A stretch of 56,342 bases of DNA, filler included, from Basidiobolus ranarum (lineage: Eukaryota): assembly GCA_040143965.1 (NCBI GenBank). It is 3 parts of 3 records of this genome, joined end to end, with 100 filler letters (N's around TTAATTAATTAA, not from the genome) between each part and the next. Parts side by side here need not be neighbours in the genome. Positions count along the whole stretch, not along the records: positions 18,851 to 37,558 come from JASJQH010000269.1; 2 more parts are not named here. The stretch is one strand, 5' to 3'. The notes beneath the pieces were generated by a model. It saw only the letters and a list, made by a program, of their open reading frames with translations, searched no databases and was not told the DNA's origin. The translations under genes were made by a program, and so were the position numbers. Below, one piece after another: positions 26,603 through 34,700 of the stretch (position 1 is its first letter; the number at the start of each line of letters is the position of its first letter).

Positions 26603-27661
26603 CTTTTGGTTCACTCAATCCCAGGGAAAAAGTAATTTGAAAAAGAAAAGTACGAGGTTTCCTGATGGAGTGAGACAAGTGAAGAAGGAAAATCTAAAGC
26701 GTTTTCACAATAAGGTAGTGTATATCAAATATGTATATATCGAAAAGAAAGGGAACAGAAAGGTGAGGGTGGAAAGGAAATTGATCTGACTTGGGCGTTA
26801 ACTTTGATAGCTAAAAGTCTTTGTTAAGTGACACATGAAGTCAATACGGAGGTTATGGTTAGTTAATATTCACTCATGTATATGACGCTTATATATTACC
26901 AGAGGAAAAGAAAAGACCCAAACTGATAAGTGTTGAATTTATGTTATGCCAAAAGAAAGATGAAAAGAAACGAGATGGATTAAATTACGAGAAGAGGTAA
27001 TGAGAAAAGGCTTAGCAAAAAAGCATTCAGACCCAACTCTAGTACGAATTTTAACGGTGTAGTCGTAAAGCCTCGCAGAAAATCAAATTAAAACAAGGGA
27101 GTGGGTGCGAATGCGAATGCTGAATGAATTCGTAGACTGTGGGACCTACTGAGCAAATAATCGATTATTTCAGGGATATTCTGGCTTGGGCCAGAGATCG
27201 AGATTTAAGAGAAAACTATGGGAATGTGGAGAGATAGGCCCATGCGCTGATCCAAGTTCAAATATCTATATTTAAGGGTTGCGTTGTCCAAATTCTTGGT
27301 TTAGCAATAAGGTCACCTTAGATTAATACTAGTGAGAGGGAATATGTGGTTCTACAGAATGTTCGTCACATTGACACAGTTGATTTGAATCCAGAATCCA
27401 AAATAAATGGTCTAACGAATAAGCTCCGTAATACTCTGAGATAAATTAACAATAGCATAAATTAGCCGGAGAAAAGGAAGATATACAGTACAAGCAGGGT
27501 TGGTAGATCATATTATATAGTTATAATTTAGCTCATTTTCACCGAATTCGGGGATTACCACTATTAAGATATAATGCCAGCTCTTGACTCTAAAGTGGGA
27601 GCTGCTCGTCCGAACGTAACCTAAACCCCTCTAGCCGAACTAAAGGCTCAGTCTAACCCAG

Positions 27662-29709
27662 ATGAAAACCTCTAACACGTTAACCTTGTTAGTTGCCCTT
27701 TTATGTAACTCAACCCAAGCTAATCCTACAGCCCGGCTTATCGATCCATGTACTACCCTATCCCGCAACTCAGCGAGATTTTTAACTTATGATACAGTTT
27801 TAGCGTGCTATAGGAACATCCCATTTTCAAATTATGTAAGAGAGCATACCGTGAAAAATCTATTGAAAGCTCTCCAATTTTACGTATTCAAAGATATTGC
27901 CAAAGAGGGTTCGCACGGAGTAGACTTAAAGAAGGATTTGGAAGATTTATTACTAGAAGATTTCTCCAATGACTTTCAATTCCAGCAAAAGGTTCAAGAA
28001 GTATTTATACCGCTGAATGATGGTCATGTAGGATATCAACCTGGGTGCTATCGAACCATGAGCTTTATTCAGGCATTTCCTTTGACCTCGTACGTTGATT
28101 CTACTGGTACGCAACGTGTATACATATTAAACCACCTCGTATTCCAACGGGAGTTATACGATAAAGTTAGAGAGATTTCGGGGGTCAACGTCGAAAGCCA
28201 CCTTGGTATGGAGGTGACTGAAATCGATGGCATACCAGCGCTGGAGGCGCTACAACGCTTCGCCGATTGGGAGTTGGGACGAACTAAGGATCCTCAACAG
28301 CGATTTGAATTGCTACTTGCGAATCACGCCTTAACTTCGTCTGGGCAATGGCAAAGCTTTTTTGGATACTGGGCCTCACCAGGCATAGTTCCAGATAAAT
28401 CAAACATAACGTACTCTCTTCGCTCACCTCAGTATGGAACCATAAAAGTGACTATTCCATGGGTGGCTCTCCCACAGATCAGGCTGAATAGCTTCTCAAA
28501 CACACTAGGCTACAAAAAAGAGTATTGTGATGTGGACCCGGCAAGTCCATATGAAATGCAATATTTGAACCCTTCAACTTTGGGCCTGTTACCAGAGTCA
28601 GGGCCTGGACAGTCGGAAGTAGAATATCCATCTACCACGTACAGCCGATTCCCAGTCATGCTGAACAATCCTCTAGTCAACACTGGTCCACTAAAATTCT
28701 ACCGCCTTGCGGACAACACTGGGGTTTTGGTGCTTCCAACTTTTTCGCTAAGTGATCAATTTACTTTATACGATTTTGATGGATATATGGAGCAAGGATT
28801 GGGAAGGTTCAAACAGCTTGGAGTACGAAAATTAATCTTGGTAGGCCCAGCTCTAAGTGAGGAAAGGGATCATCAAACACTAACATGATTGTTCTATGTA
28901 GGATTTTACTAATAACCCAGGGGGGTCCATCTGTCTTGGTTACAAGCTAGTAAATCATATATTTCCCCAGATTCCACGCTCTCAGCTTTACTACCAGTCA
29001 GATCTAAGTCGTTCTCAACTAGCGGTAGAGCTTGCGAAGCGCAACTCAATTTGGAAGTGCTCGAACTATTACAATCCTCAAGACAGTGCCCTGCATGGAT
29101 CCATGTCCTGCATGCTGCCTGGTATGACGTACACCAGAGGGGGTGAGAAATCTAACTTCACTCATTTGGTGCAATACAACTGCGATTATCAGGTGAATCA
29201 AGGCACGGTCCGAAGACCTTGGTTTCAAGCCAAAGATGTGGCAATAGTAACCAATGGAAGATGTGCATCTACATGCTCCTCAGTTTCCAAGTAATTTTCA
29301 TCCGCTCTCTTTATCACCTACAAGCCTAGAATTTCGTTCTAACATTGTTTCCTCGCATAGCTTCTTACAACGGGTTATGAAGGTTCGTACATTCGTGACC
29401 TCTCCCTTCCCGACTGGCACTAATCCGCCGATTAGTACAGCACCAGGTGGAATGGTTTTCTCATATGATAATCTAATGTGGCAGATTGTAGATGCAGGCC
29501 TAGGCAATAGAGAAGAAGCACCCAAGAGATTGCCACAGAAAGCTGACTTCTATTTCACCATTATGGAGAATTACGGCTGGAATACAAGCTTGCCTGATGA
29601 GTATGCTCAAAGGCCTGCCACTGATCGGATAATCATGGATGAAACTAAACACTTTAGTCCAGGTGATGTATGGGCCGAAATATCGCAAAAGATGAATGCT
29701 AGCAGCTGA
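27662..29709 (+). CDS. Secreted S41-family (tail-specific-protease-like) peptidase; 3 exons
   Basis: Signal peptide; LNDGHV; introns 28841-28901 and 29291-29360 give LIL|DFTNNPGGSICLG and IVTNGRCASTCS. Confidence 0.85.
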
Positions 29710-29880
29710 GTATGATTGTTGTTCGGTCATTGTTCGATCATTGTATATACAAATTTACACCAATATATATAAACGAATACCAGCAATAAATTTGGTTCCA
29801 TAAGAAACCACTTGATATTTTATATATATTATACATTATACAGCGGGTATCGTAGCCGAGATTTATGTAGAAGGGAAGAG

Positions 29881-29906
29881 GGTTACGCGGGGTTACGCGG
29901 GGTTAC
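29881..29906. repeat. 10-bp tandem repeat ggttacgcgg (about 2.6 copies) overlapping the stop codon of the SNAP-like gene
   Basis: ggttacgcgg ggttacgcgg ggttac. Confidence 0.85.
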
Positions 29907-31320
29907 CATCTAGAAACTGGACTGCGGTTGCAGCTCTGGATAATATGGCCAGTATCCAATTAGGGAGAGGAGCAAGGTCGTGGTACCTTTGATACGCCTC
30001 AGTGAATTGGCTGGAATCGAAGCAACATGCAGCCTCCACCAAACTCTATTTAATATGCAAGCTCATCAATACAAATGCTAAATGTGTGACATGTCATTGA
30101 CCGTTAACCTACATCAATCAGACGATATTCATCGGAATTAAGGAAAGATCCATAAGTAGTGGCATATTCTTTATATGCCAAGCTTATGCGAGACCATTCT
30201 TCTAAAGCAATCATACATATGCAAGCTTGAAATAGGAAGCTCTTAACTTTGAAAGTCAGCGTCGGGTCATTGACTGATATCCTAGCCAATTCCTCGAGCC
30301 ATGGGATTGCTTCGTCATAATGACCAATTTGTGCCGCAAGCTCTGCCTGATGAATTAGTGAATATTTGAAATGGCTTCATCTCATTGTTAGACTGGCTTT
30401 TCCATTGGTAGCACAAAATAACTCCCATGCTTACCCATTATCTGCTGCTCGAAATATCTCAGTGGCCTTTTTATAGTATCCAAATGCCAATGCTAAAGCG
30501 GTCTTCTTGGGTTTGCCATTATTTGTTTTTTCGTAATAATCTCCGATTTTTTCAAAAAGCTTTCCAGCACGATTGGGATCCTTTTTGGTGGAATCAAATA
30601 CGGTGGCTGCATCTTTCAAAGCCTGAAGTGTTTTATCTATTGATGCAACATAAGTCTCTATGTTGTGCACAAAGCAAGTGATGATTTAAACTAACCTTCG
30701 TAGTTGGTATGCTTGTAAGCGTTATAGGCCTCCTCAAAGCAAATGGCCGCTTCGCGGGTACTGAGTTCGTCTCCCAATTTCATGAAAGCCTCCCCAGCTT
30801 CTTGAAAGCGTGCACCCGCTCGTTTATCTTAAGATATAAAGTTTAGTCTACACCTCTAACAACTAAAAGAAATTCAAACAAGCAAACATTTTTTCTTAGC
30901 TAAAGCTTGTTTGGCATCATCTCGAGCTTCCTGTCCAATATTACTAAAATTAGGCTCTTCTTGGCGGGAAGACCCTGCCACAGGAGTGGGACTTGCTTTG
31001 ATGTTACCACTTTCAGAAAATAAACTCCATCTATTTAAACAGCCAAGATAAACCGCACTACCATCCTTTAGCTTTACAATACTGAATAACTGATAGTTTT
31101 TCCAAGTGAAGTCAAGACTTGAACTTCGTCCGTGGGCCTTTGCTTTGGTTTTCGCAGCAAAGTTCTTTATCCAAGCAGCTCCATAAGAAGAAGTACTGCC
31201 TTCTTCTTGAAGTTTGGCATATTTACGGGTAATGAAAGTGCGGAAGGACTCAGGATTAGGGTTGGTGATATAGAATACATATGTAAAGAGTATAATCAAA
31301 AGGCTTATTAACAAGAACAT
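29893..31320 (-). CDS. Alpha-SNAP (Sec17)-like protein with N-terminal TM anchor and DUF4359-like segment; 5 exons, about 393 aa
   Basis: Introns 30828-30887, 30637-30695, 30375-30434, 30046-30112 give an open frame; SNAP-like motifs AGARFQEAGEAFMK, RAGKLFEKIGDYYE, GHYDEAIPWLEELARISVNDPTLTFKVKSFLFQACIC, FLNSDEYRLI, FTEAYQRY…LPNW. Confidence 0.85.
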
Positions 31321-31709
31321 TTCAAGGATATCATCAATTCAGAAGAAGGAATACAAGAAAAATGCAAACTGACTAGTGACCAGATTTAATTGATTTTAGG
31401 AGAAAAGGAGGTAACAGATTTCACAAGGAGATAGCTTGGAATATATTGGATGTACATACACGCAACTTTAATGTGTGTAAATCAGGCAGATATGGAGATC
31501 TGTTAAAAAGTCGTAATGTTAATGGAACGTCATCCGTATTCCGAATATCGGTCTCATGAAAATTGCTCGCTACTATAATCAATCGTCACAAAAATGCATC
31601 TTCAAAACTATCTACATCATCCCCTCCCCCCAATTCCAAATTTCTTAATAGCTGAAAACGCTAATTATCTTTCCTATACTTTTGACTCTTGGACCTATAA
31701 TACGTTTAT

Positions 31710-34700
31710 ATGAGCGAGACATTGAAAGACGTGCCGGAGCTATTTGAGAACGAACTCAAAGAGTCATTAAATGCTAGAACTGATGGACTTGGTTGTTATT
31801 CACCTTGAGCTAGAATCCTTCCATATCTTCATTTTACTTATGATTGCTTTACATTCTAACCAGCTTCGTACAAAGAGCTTGGTCCTCCAGATCTTTGTCA
31901 CTTGACAAAAGCTTCCGGGAAACAAGGAGTTAAAGAGGTATGCACTTTGAAACAACTCGAAAAATCTAGATAGAAACTGTTTTTGGAATTCGACGTGTTT
32001 CTAGTCTCGCCATCACCATCTTTCACTAGCTTTTATTCTCTCTTATGCATATACTCACCAATTCAAAATGTTAGATTGGCTCCTACCATCATATAATGGG
32101 CATAGATGCTTCCTCTTCTGCAAGTCTTGCCGCTTACATTAACTCTTTGACTTATTCGATGGTATAGTAACTTTTGGATAGTAAAGTAGCTGTAAAATGA
32201 ACAAGTATTGATCACCTCCATCAGGATGACCCTCACGGTTGGTTTAGCAAAGGACCAGCTTGGAAGATTAGTTCAGGAGTTTATTGGTACTTCATAGTCC
32301 TATCAGTATTACAACGATATATCTAGCTAACTCGTGTGAACCCCCAATACTAGTTGCTACAATGCATTTTCTCGAGTCGATGTACGCGTTGAAGTGAACA
32401 TCCCTGGCGGTGTATCCAGTTACGTAGTCAATCAAAAAGGAGAAAAGTAAGCAAGAGAAACCTCCAAATCCGAAGCCTTATGTAGACATCCGATACTAAA
32501 AACAAATCCCAAATTTAATTAGATTAGAAGCAAAAGCTGAGATTTGGCACGAAACACACATCTCATCAATCCTTCGCTCCTTCCTCTATTCAGATGATGA
32601 GAACTACCGTTTGTCGGGATTAAGAAAAATCGACCCGATATCCAACCTCAATGCAGAGAAACGCTTCTTGGAATCAGCCGAACAAGTGTTTTTCAAGGGT
32701 AAGTAACGTCATAAAGACCTACTCATAATAGTTTACTAACGGGTAACATGAATGTAACATAGGATGGCAACTTGGAAGTGACCCCATGATTCAAGTAGCC
32801 ACTAATGTCCATAATCATCTTATCGATGGATTGATGAAGTATTTCAGCGAGAGCTCTCGATTCGACATCGCAGCCAGCTTCTTTGAAAAACATATCCTTT
32901 TTTCTTTTTCACTTTCTTTACTATTCCAAGTGACAATTGTGCTTATAGCTCTTTAACTCCTCACACTGTATACAAAGGATCCTGAAGTTACTGCTCTTCT
33001 TGCCCGATCATACTTTGGAATGGGTAAACAATAGAATGGCAAAACTTACGCAAAGCCATGCATCCATATTTAATGAACATATATTTTGTAGACGAGGAAA
33101 TCAAAGGCGTTAAAGCATTGCATCACGCTTTAAAGAAGAATAGCATGAGTTATCCCTTACTTCATGTTCAAGCAGATTTCTTGTTAAAAAAGGTAAGCAA
33201 CTTCATTTCAGAATACTGAGAAAATATTTACTAATGGGAATGCGCTAGAAAAAAATGGATATCGCATTACAACTAGCTAAGCAAGCAGTCAATAGTGCTC
33301 CCTCAGAGTTCCTCACCTGGGCCAAACTCACCGAAATCTATATGGAGATGGAAGATTTCAAATCTGTAAGGCTTGGCTTTTGATGAACCCACTCCTACGT
33401 TTTCTCAATCTAACCTTTCCTGCATTAGGCCCTCTTAACTTTGAACTCCTGTCCGATGTTCACGTACACCGATCGTGACTTCCCTCGTATGCCACCGCCT
33501 TTGAAGGTTCATTTACCTGCCAAATTTGAGGGAAACTACGGTCTTGGTCCTGAAGAAGAAAACGAAAAAGAATTAGAAGTAATAGGTTTAAGCTAGTGCG
33601 AGTTAGTTAATATATTCTTACGTGGCAATTGATTATATGCATAGGTTCAATCTGCTCTTGCCAGACTCCCCGCTCCTTCATTAAGAGGCACATTTGCCAT
33701 CGCTTACAATATTCTCACCTTATTGGTTTCTAAGGTTGGATGGGATGATCTTTTAAAATGCAGATCTCATGTATTCGTAATGGAAGAAGAGTATCGTCTT
33801 CAAAAGGCTCAAGAAGAACAAGTCTACACATCCAGTGATACCGGTGCCAATGAAGACGATGACATCCCACTTGGTGTAAAAAAGGAACAAGCCGTCTCAG
33901 CTACAGTGGATTCTGTAGAAGAGAAAGAGGAAGACGATCAGCCAACCATGGTGAATGAGGCAGTAGAGCTTGATGAGAAACTTGATGAACAAGCTTTAGA
34001 TACAGTTCCTGAAGTTGCACCTACCAACATCAAACCAGCTGATTTAGTAAGCGAAGAGATTCATACCCCAAATGGTGAACCAGAAGAAGGAAAGAATGAT
34101 AGTGCAGATGACGACTCACTTGTTGGTAAAGTAGAGAGTGTCAACCTCGACGATACACCTAAGCAGGAACTCGAAAATTTGAATCAAGATAAAGAGAATG
34201 AAGAGGAGGTTGAAACCTCTCATTCAGATGTTGTTTCCGATGGTGAAAAAGAGAACGTTGAGACTACTCTCACTGAGGGTACCGAGCTTAATGATACAAT
34301 AAATGGAACCGATACTGAGCATGTAGAGAATATCCCGCCCTCCATGTCTGCTCGTAAGGATAGCGATCAATCTGAGAAGGTACAAATCATTAACCCTTTT
34401 TCCCCCTGGCTATTTACTAACTATTTACATAGACTGGGCAGAGTAGAAGAGACTTTATTACCACCTTTAGTAATAAGAGACTTTGTGAAAGGTAATATAA
34501 AACACCCATTTCCAAGTATGTTCGCTCACTAAAAATCGATGGACTGTGAATCCTCTAGATGGCTGGACAATTTATTTATGGTTCTATATGAGGTATGTAT
34601 ATATAGCTATTCAGTTGGTAAGCAATTTACGAATACTTTTGTTAGGATTTGAGAGCATATACCGCCTGGAGAGCTGAAGCTTCACATGTGAAATCCCAAC

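Follow-up and report, generated by a model that had tools for sequence, protein, structure and literature searches.

A predicted membrane-anchored alpha-SNAP paralogue with a DUF4359-like N-terminal domain in Basidiobolus ranarum

SNAPs are by definition soluble; a small apolar loop brings them to membranes, and they work only with NSF. Here we report a computational analysis of K7432_006248, a gene of Basidiobolus ranarum on the minus strand at positions 29893 to 31320 of a 56,342-nucleotide (nt) stretch of DNA (hereafter the window, meaning the whole stretch analysed, which is composed of three parts of GenBank assembly GCA_040143965.1; the gene lies in the part from JASJQH010000269.1). Its 393-residue product joins a hydrophobic N-terminal helix, predicted to be a signal anchor, to a domain homologous to the bacterial family DUF4359, a flexible linker and a SNAP-family domain. 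We are highly confident of this architecture and of the assignment to the SNAP family. The reading that we favour, and consider somewhat probable, is that of an integral-membrane SNAP paralogue serving as a resident holder or regulator of SNAREs and weakly coupled to NSF. Taken as separate parts, a SNARE-related role comes close to an even call, with doubt slightly ahead, and weak NSF coupling, if such a role is granted, is fairly probable. The anchored SNAP–DUF4359 design is what is new here; the protein itself was already on record at the NCBI as a hypothetical protein, and the SNAP family is well known. The full-text literature searched, a collection with most subscription journals and supplements outside it, yielded no account of a SNAP that carries a transmembrane anchor or a DUF4359 domain.

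A natural SNAP of this kind would separate membrane attachment, SNARE caging and NSF recruitment, which experiments with Sec17 mutants seek to disentangle in vitro. If it binds SNAREs, membrane fusion in early-diverging fungi would have a compartment-specific regulator of a new type; if its partner is something else, it would be the second case, after HAP40, of a SNAP fold recruited to a new job. In addition, DUF4359, an orphan bacterial family, would for the first time have relatives in eukaryotes, joined to a defined partner domain, which could aid the assignment of a function.

Domain architecture and relatives

Residues 125 to 388 form a SNAP-family domain and not a generic tetratricopeptide repeat (TPR) domain. 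A Pfam search of the whole protein aligned residues 141 to 384 with positions 47 to 280 of the 282-position SNAP profile PF14938 (109.6 bits, E = 2.6e-31; curated cut-off, 25 bits), and all generic TPR models fell under their own cut-offs. Searched exon by exon, exon 4 alone matched PF14938 (E = 7.4e-12, profile positions 159 to 238), exon 5 matched weakly in the expected place (241 to 281), and exons 2 and 3 matched weakly, both at about 38 to 89. A sequence search of the Protein Data Bank (PDB) returned seven distinct chains at E ≤ 0.01, all of them alpha-SNAP (E = 1.3e-15) or Sec17 (5.8e-8), with gamma-SNAP and HAP40 absent at that threshold. A profile built from four members of the family described below aligned with Sec17 (PDB 1QQE) at E = 8.3e-33, pairing profile positions 121 to 390 with Sec17 residues 23 to 287.

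The predicted fold leads to the same family. An AlphaFold2 model of the whole protein, based on 17 aligned sequences, has a mean predicted local distance difference test (pLDDT) score of 87.5, and residues 125 to 388 consist of 13 long helices and one four-residue helical turn, mostly with pLDDT >90. The best Foldseek match is Sec17 (9ng2_H; E = 3.8e-11, template modelling (TM) score of 0.82 on the target, root mean square deviation (rmsd) of 3.2 Å, 287 columns), followed by alpha-SNAP (9pff_L; E = 4.3e-11) and Sec17 1QQE (E = 3.5e-9). The diverged branches of the family match more weakly (gamma-SNAP 2ifu_D, E = 5.8e-6; HAP40, E = 9.2e-5), and ordinary TPR proteins rank later with poor TM scores. 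The SNAP-fold layout, a twisted sheet of helical hairpins followed by a C-terminal helical bundle, is present, with TM scores of 0.76–0.84 on the target for the best PDB matches. In the ESM Atlas, the whole protein recovered only clusters of canonical SNAPs, at scores of 0.84–0.86, which lie below the 0.9 level and count as a lead; the SNAPs in these clusters are 258–329 residues long, against 393 for the Basidiobolus protein. An earlier note, made from the window sequence, had held that the C-terminal ~260 residues are like alpha-SNAP and Sec17; the Pfam match, the PDB sequence matches, the Sec17 profile alignment and the Foldseek ranking all agree with it, and an assignment to generic TPRs was not seen in the profile search.

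The same note had likened the pattern TNP...YxLFS...LG in the N-terminal segment to DUF4359 and had named Pfam's model as a check. That model (PF14271; cut-off, 27 bits) gave no match to exon 1 at E ≤ 1, the sole Pfam match of this exon being DUF4199 (E = 0.14), nor did it match three related eukaryotic proteins (P0003, P0004 and P0006) at E ≤ 0.1. The likeness was instead borne out by custom profiles. A phmmer search with exon 1 against 1.84 billion representative proteins retrieved six proteins at E ≤ 0.001, including the query: P0003 (1.4e-6), P0004 (8.8e-6), P0005 (1.5e-4), P0006 (5.4e-4) and P0007 (8.3e-4). P0005 is a stand-alone, bacterial-type protein of 102 residues that scores 26.8 bits on PF14271, just below the cut-off. 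Its relatives in three bacterial genomes (Rhodothermales, Apibacter and Bacteroidales, metagenome-assembled genomes (MAGs)) all match PF14271, two of the three over the cut-off, and a same-phylum sample of 201 genomes contained a match in 15, over the cut-off in 11. P0007 was rejected as a composition artefact: a protein with chitin-binding CBM14 repeats, it aligns only with the Pro/Ser-rich linker and reaches −1.8 bits with the DUF4359 hidden Markov model (HMM).

We then built a bacterial DUF4359 HMM from 14 distinct open reading frames (ORFs) at loci located with PF14271, the ORFs being chosen with a seed HMM of P0005 and P0008; three duplicate loci, L013 (identical to L012), and L008 and L019, which had no ORF passing the seed HMM, were left out. 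All five eukaryotic N-termini matched this model, with 29.8, 28.5 (B. ranarum), 27.6, 27.2 and 22.6 bits, compared with 11.1 bits for the best of 2,000 shuffled controls, and hhalign paired the eukaryotic and bacterial alignments with 98.3% probability (E = 1.1e-14, 91 columns). The two groups have a common layout of a helix, x-N-P, a conserved Phe, helices, an (R/K)xNYxLFS strand and an (F/Y)LG strand, in which N20, P21, F26, N75, Y76, S80 and G93 are invariant or near-invariant across 21 sequences. By these profile comparisons, the N-terminal segment is a real DUF4359 homologue, and Pfam's model is too narrow to detect it.

In B. ranarum, the DUF4359-homologous α/β domain is encoded by codons 19–103 of exon 1 (31012 to 31266) and comprises the TNP motif, two helices, the NYQLFS strand, the YLG...W segment and four strands; its model (pLDDT 76.7) shows the hydrophobic helix, two more helices and a four-stranded sheet. 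In Foldseek, no PDB entry matched it at E ≤ 0.001 (best, 0.35). A VIA-align comparison with 48,161 chains gave candidates that we set aside as lying within the noise of that tool: a chain of the human TIM22 complex (7cgp_C; Z = 6.1, rmsd of 3.5 Å over 92 residues) and, next, NTF2-like proteins (Z of 4–5). The ESM Atlas offered a weak lead for the N-terminal part, a cluster (score 0.75) in which 13% of members carry DUF4359. No function for DUF4359 is described in the full-text literature searched, where the term appears in transcriptomics work.

The same order of parts recurs outside B. ranarum (whose protein is P0001). P0002, from B. meristosporus CBS 931.73, has 402 residues, is 73% identical overall and scores 114.5 bits on PF14938; two environmental proteins, P0004 (397 residues, an IMG record; 83 bits) and P0006 (416 residues, a Logan record; 104.5 bits), repeat the arrangement, and in a partial protein from an Olpidium bornovanus MAG (P0003, KAG5460373.1) the first SNAP helices come after the DUF4359-like part. 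The expectation of the earlier note that the architecture would occur in other early-diverging fungi was thus realized in Olpidium, in this partial form. In all family members, the domain opens with a helix and T-N/K-P, and helix α1 and the loop of canonical SNAPs are missing. Between the two Basidiobolus species, the N-terminus encoded by exon 1 is 68% identical and the SNAP domain 71–75%; outside the genus, SNAP-domain identity is 21–27%. Because the members have derived features in common, we infer a single origin for the fusion, in which a DUF4359 module, probably bacterial by descent, was joined to a SNAP paralogue. Word-index searches recovered only family members, both with the SNAP part (two proteins among 1,996 candidates at E ≤ 1e-5) and with the family alignment (three among 8,000 at E ≤ 0.1), and metagenome scans confirmed none of 375 pattern matches to the family alignment and none of 41 to P0004.

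Membrane anchor, contact residues and function

Residues 1–18 (31267 to 31320), a hydrophobic helix running from Met1, have a mean Kyte–Doolittle value of 2.63, and the three most hydrophobic 19-residue windows of the protein are its first three; the only later window above 1.6 starts at residue 295 within a SNAP helix (1.62). Residues 2–18 are modelled as a single helix with pLDDT >90. Cleavage by signal peptidase favours small residues at positions −3 and −1, and because the residues that follow the helix (...VFYITNP) misfit this rule, the helix is likely to be an uncleaved signal anchor. The linker (residues 104–124; 30949 to 31011), rich in Ser, Pro and Gly and not alignable among family members, is predicted to be disordered, with pLDDT <50 for residues 105–119.

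The charges flanking the helix differ between the eukaryotic and bacterial proteins. In the Basidiobolus proteins, no charge precedes the helix and the 15 residues after it carry +2, whereas all 16 bacterial DUF4359 proteins have K/R in front of it, and in 15 of them the N-terminal flank is more positive than the C-terminal one. Read by the positive-inside rule, these charges suggest opposite orientations, with the DUF4359 and SNAP parts of the eukaryotic proteins in the cytosol and the N-terminus outside, and with the bacterial DUF4359 domain facing outward. The bacterial proteins (PF14271; about 110–140 residues, with a single N-terminal helix) resemble the eukaryotic copies in the helix-xNP, Phe, NYxLFS and (F/Y)LG(I/V) layout, and differ in that they stand alone and carry K/R before the helix; the eukaryotic copies begin with the helix and run into a SNAP domain.

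In the 20S complex, each SNAP turns its N-terminal loop towards the bilayer, next to the SNARE anchors, and its C-terminus towards NSF (PMC8143792). Because of this arrangement, the anchor and flexible linker would hold the N-terminal end of the SNAP domain at the membrane in its working orientation, and the anchor would give permanently the membrane attachment that the loop gives transiently. What remains of the fold is its groove side, and the protein would most likely bind a bundle of helices on its home membrane, probably that of SNARE complexes or of Q-SNARE subcomplexes. The apolar loop itself, formed in Sec17 by F21 and M22, dips into the bilayer and is needed for Sec17-driven fusion (PMC8143792). 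Helix α1 and this loop have no counterpart in the Basidiobolus protein, where the profile alignment begins at Sec17 residue 23, right after F21/M22, in line with the proposal of the earlier note that anchor, DUF4359-like segment and linker replace the usual N-terminal loop region. Because the loop is absent, no fusion-promoting wedge activity would be expected.

Two acidic sets of alpha-SNAP, D217/E249/E252/E253 and D290–D293, mediate its binding to the NSF N-domain (PMC11532144, citing Zhao et al. 2015), and Sec17 L291/L292 are needed for cooperation with Sec18 (PMC8143792); the residue roles used in this comparison are taken from PMC11532144, PMC6457932 and PMC8143792. In the order P0001/P0002/P0004/P0006, the family alignment reads E/E/Q/L at D217, E/E/T/S at E249, C/L/E/S at E252 and C/R/A/S at E253, so that E314 and E347 of P0001 are the two kept acidic residues of the first set. 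The D290–D293 stretch is absent. The tails end in ...QFLDGNPA, ...QYLDGSST, ...KRPDLT and ...AHVGIR, the last ten residues including 1, 1, 2 and 0 acidic ones, and Leu388 of P0001 lies six residues from the end; the penultimate Leu of alpha-SNAP is L294. The observation that the C-terminus has no acidic motif with a penultimate Leu thus stood. Among the SNARE contacts, the alignment reads K/K/R/R at K122 (basic in all four proteins), K/R/N/K at K203 (basic in three), Y/Y/T/F at K163, the equivalent of Sec17 K159 (basic in none), and D/D/R/R at R239, two of the four basic residues being kept in P0001. As judged from these columns, the NSF-facing features are largely gone, least clearly in P0004, and about half of the SNARE-facing ones are kept.

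Because the acidic sets and the Leu motif are mostly lost, recruitment of Sec18/NSF would be poor, and the protein would hold or shield SNAREs locally on one compartment without serving as a general disassembly cofactor. The earlier note had suggested either a tethered disassembly adaptor or an NSF-uncoupled decoy; the conserved residues lean towards weak coupling to NSF. Compared with alpha-SNAP and Sec17 (PF14938; PDB 1QQE, 3J96, 9CRU and 9NG2), it is alike from helix α2 to the end, with an rmsd of about 3 Å, and in the basic residues at the K122 and K203 positions; it differs in having no helix α1, apolar loop, acidic Leu tail or basic K163 equivalent, in being predicted to be an integral membrane protein instead of a soluble one, and in its extra DUF4359 domain and linker. 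A parallel in geometry is the N-terminally anchored Sec17 engineered by Wickner and colleagues, which still needs Sec18 and the apolar loop for fusion (PMC8143792). Both are SNAPs held by a transmembrane segment at the N-terminal, membrane-facing end. However, the engineered protein keeps the apolar loop and the Sec18-coupling tail, whereas the Basidiobolus protein has neither and places a folded DUF4359 module between anchor and SNAP domain.

A number of observations weigh against this reading of a resident SNARE holder. The columns were mapped by hand from a printed PDB-chain alignment, with the offset fixed by K122, K163 and M105, and residue-level arguments are fragile: an alignment of this kind places an Ala of Sec17 itself in the K122 column. 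At the K163/Sec17-K159 position, on which SNARE binding and disassembly depend, none of the four proteins has a basic residue, and the R239 equivalent is Asp in both Basidiobolus proteins; because of these two changes, SNARE binding may have been lost. Conversely, NSF coupling may persist in some lineages, because P0004 (...PDLT) and P0006 (...VGIR) have an aliphatic penultimate residue, as alpha-SNAP does. In pairwise scores, the family members are also no closer to each other than to mammalian alpha-SNAP: the P0001 domain (residues 125–393) scores 58.8 bits against P0004 and 45.0 against P0006, and whole P0001 scores 60.6 bits against mammalian alpha-SNAP, at least as high as the within-family scores. 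The topology argument is weak for P0004 (0 versus about 0), and the flank charges of P0003 and P0006 are unreadable, their annotated starts being doubtful. To these is added the silence of PF14271 on exon 1 and on three of its relatives, as described above.

The loss of the K163 equivalent is likewise the main ground for the strongest alternative, which is unlikely in our judgement and still deserves a serious hearing. It holds that the SNAP-fold scaffold has moved out of SNARE/NSF biology to another partner on its organelle, much as HAP40 did in its own way, with the DUF4359 domain contributing to the new role. The Asp at R239 in both Basidiobolus proteins and the largely lost acidic sets agree with such a shift, and the low SNAP-domain identity among members (21–27%) suggests that constraint has relaxed or changed. 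The precedent is HAP40, which derives from a SNAP, has ceased to serve NSF and has become a partner of huntingtin (PMC7725122); it is itself among the fold matches (E = 9.2e-5). However, in both sequence and fold the Basidiobolus protein is much nearer to Sec17 and alpha-SNAP than to HAP40 or gamma-SNAP; basic residues stand at the K122 position in all four members and at the K203 position in three; and the placement of the domain's N-terminal end at the membrane reproduces the geometry in which SNAPs work on SNARE bundles. Gamma-SNAP (2IFU) and HAP40 (9YR6, 8VLX) are alike in overall fold with weaker Foldseek matches than Sec17 and alpha-SNAP, and we know of no membrane anchor or DUF4359 domain in either.

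We rate it as quite improbable that the protein is a fully working, compartment-restricted SNAP, in which the anchor would concentrate a canonical adaptor that recruits Sec18/NSF for the disassembly of cis-SNARE complexes. In its favour, Sec17 engineered to carry an N-terminal anchor cooperates with Sec18 in reconstituted fusion (PMC8143792), protist alpha-SNAP paralogues with separate locations are known (PMC6172762, PMC12019078), the K122 and K203 equivalents are kept, E314 and E347 preserve half of the four-residue first acidic set, and the penultimate residues of P0004 and P0006 are aliphatic. However, the acidic terminal stretch is absent, with one acidic residue in the last ten of P0001 and P0002 and none in P0006; E252/E253 have become Cys/Cys in P0001, where Leu388 is displaced from the end; and the K163 equivalent has been lost throughout.

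A broader history built on the favoured reading of an anchored, weakly NSF-coupled SNAP is offered tentatively, and we think it unlikely in its entirety: an old, sparsely kept eukaryotic family of integral-membrane SNAPs, made by joining a bacterial DUF4359 module, inverted in the membrane, to an alpha-SNAP paralogue, would mark one organelle and hold or shield SNARE bundles there, acting as an NSF-independent, compartment-specific brake on SNARE recycling. If true, this brake would be the natural counterpart of the anchored Sec17 constructs of reconstitution work.

Gene structure and integrity of the fusion

All combinations of GT–AG introns were enumerated from the ATG at 31320 on the minus strand. 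The 393-residue model, with five exons and four GT–AG introns of 59–67 nt, is one of the two longest open frames so obtained. The other, of 394 residues, uses an alternative last intron and was rejected, its end frame having no SNAP likeness. The spliced protein is letter-for-letter identical to P0001, the NCBI entry 'hypothetical protein K7432_006248 [Basidiobolus ranarum]' of 393 residues found by the database search with exon 1, and UniRef labels the gene product 'Soluble NSF attachment protein'. The hand-spliced frame of about 393 residues in the earlier note, including the intron at 30828 to 30887, was thereby recovered, and each of the strings that it had read from it (MFLLISLLIILFTYVFYI, TNPNPESF, WKNYQLFSIV, YLGCLNRW and the ending LDGNPA) is found in the protein. 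An in-frame stop lies six codons upstream of the ATG, and no AG was seen by eye between the two, which places Met1 directly at the hydrophobic helix.

Exon 1 ends with codons 125–144 and one further nucleotide (30888 to 30948), which encode the first SNAP helix, the equivalent of Sec17 helix α2. It is followed by intron 1 (30828 to 30887; 60 nt, GTTTGC...AG, phase 1), exon 2 (30696 to 30827; PF14938 profile positions 48–89), intron 2 (30637 to 30695; 59 nt, GTTAGT...AG), exon 3 (30435 to 30636), which contains K214, the equivalent of alpha-SNAP K122, intron 3 (30375 to 30434; 60 nt, GTAAGC...AG), exon 4 (30113 to 30374) and intron 4 (30046 to 30112; 67 nt, GTAGGT...AG), exons 2–4 all belonging to the SNAP domain. 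Exon 5 (29893 to 30045) encodes the last SNAP helices and the short non-acidic tail, with the stop at 29893 to 29895. All these features lie on the minus strand.

Because the same architecture occurs in B. meristosporus, Olpidium (in part), P0004 and P0006, the fusion is, by this comparison, real and conserved and not a splicing artefact. SNAP homology also crosses the junction between exons 1 and 2: the Sec17-aligned stretch from profile position 121 begins in exon 1, and the exon 1 helix at residues 125–141 (pLDDT >90) pairs as a hairpin with the exon 2 helix at residues 145–162. That exon 1 is instead a stand-alone DUF4359 gene, and the SNAP exons a separate truncated gene or pseudogene, is very improbable: the frame of unspliced exon 1 does end four codons into the intron (ORF 30874 to 31338), but the first SNAP helix is already within this exon, the four canonical introns keep the frame, the same fusion occurs in four other proteins from different sources, and both parts are conserved between the Basidiobolus species (68% and 71–75%; 73% overall).

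Two of the relatives show irregularities in their own records. P0002 carries an extra VSDSVSCFPDK at about residues 146–156, exactly at the position of the exon 1/2 junction in B. ranarum, which suggests an intron retained by the gene caller and an intron position common to both species. In P0003, 246 Arg/Ala-rich residues with no match precede the hydrophobic helix, and SNAP likeness is lost after about residue 440; this protein is probably mis-called at both ends, its true start likely being the Met just before the helix.

At the other end of the B. ranarum gene, a perfect 10-base-pair (bp) tandem repeat (GGGTTACGCG on the plus strand, 2.7 copies, 29880 to 29906) covers the last codons and the stop. 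The unit is not a multiple of three, and TAA is in frame in the second copy only. Because the tail of the B. meristosporus protein is equal in length (LDGSST versus LDGNPA), the repeat has probably not shortened the protein.

Neighbouring genes and bacterial loci

Head to head with the SNAP gene, at about 32000 to 34532 on the plus strand, lies a many-exon gene whose last exon (33645 to 34532) matches the C-terminal end of the Pfam ChAPs model (E = 3.5e-20). ChAPs are Chs5p–Arf1p-binding proteins, cargo adaptors of exomer, so that a second trafficking gene shares the upstream region with the anchored SNAP, an arrangement that may be a coincidence. On the other side, the long open frame of the convergent neighbour (27644 to 29709, plus strand) starts much like a signal peptide and contains a CPAF-like PDZ domain (PF23658; 27.6 bits, cut-off 27); this neighbour is probably a secreted relative of S41-type peptidases, split over at least three frames.

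The surroundings of the bacterial DUF4359 genes were inspected at five loci (L005, L007, L016, L011 and L017) and yielded no functional clue. In three of the five, the DUF4359 gene is directly downstream of a DUF4159 gene, and in the other two it is downstream of a gene for an RsmE-type RNA methyltransferase. An SHMT or GH20 hexosaminidase gene follows in all four loci whose downstream ORF was scanned (L016 excluded), and at L009 and L020, ORF sizes alone suggest the same gene order.

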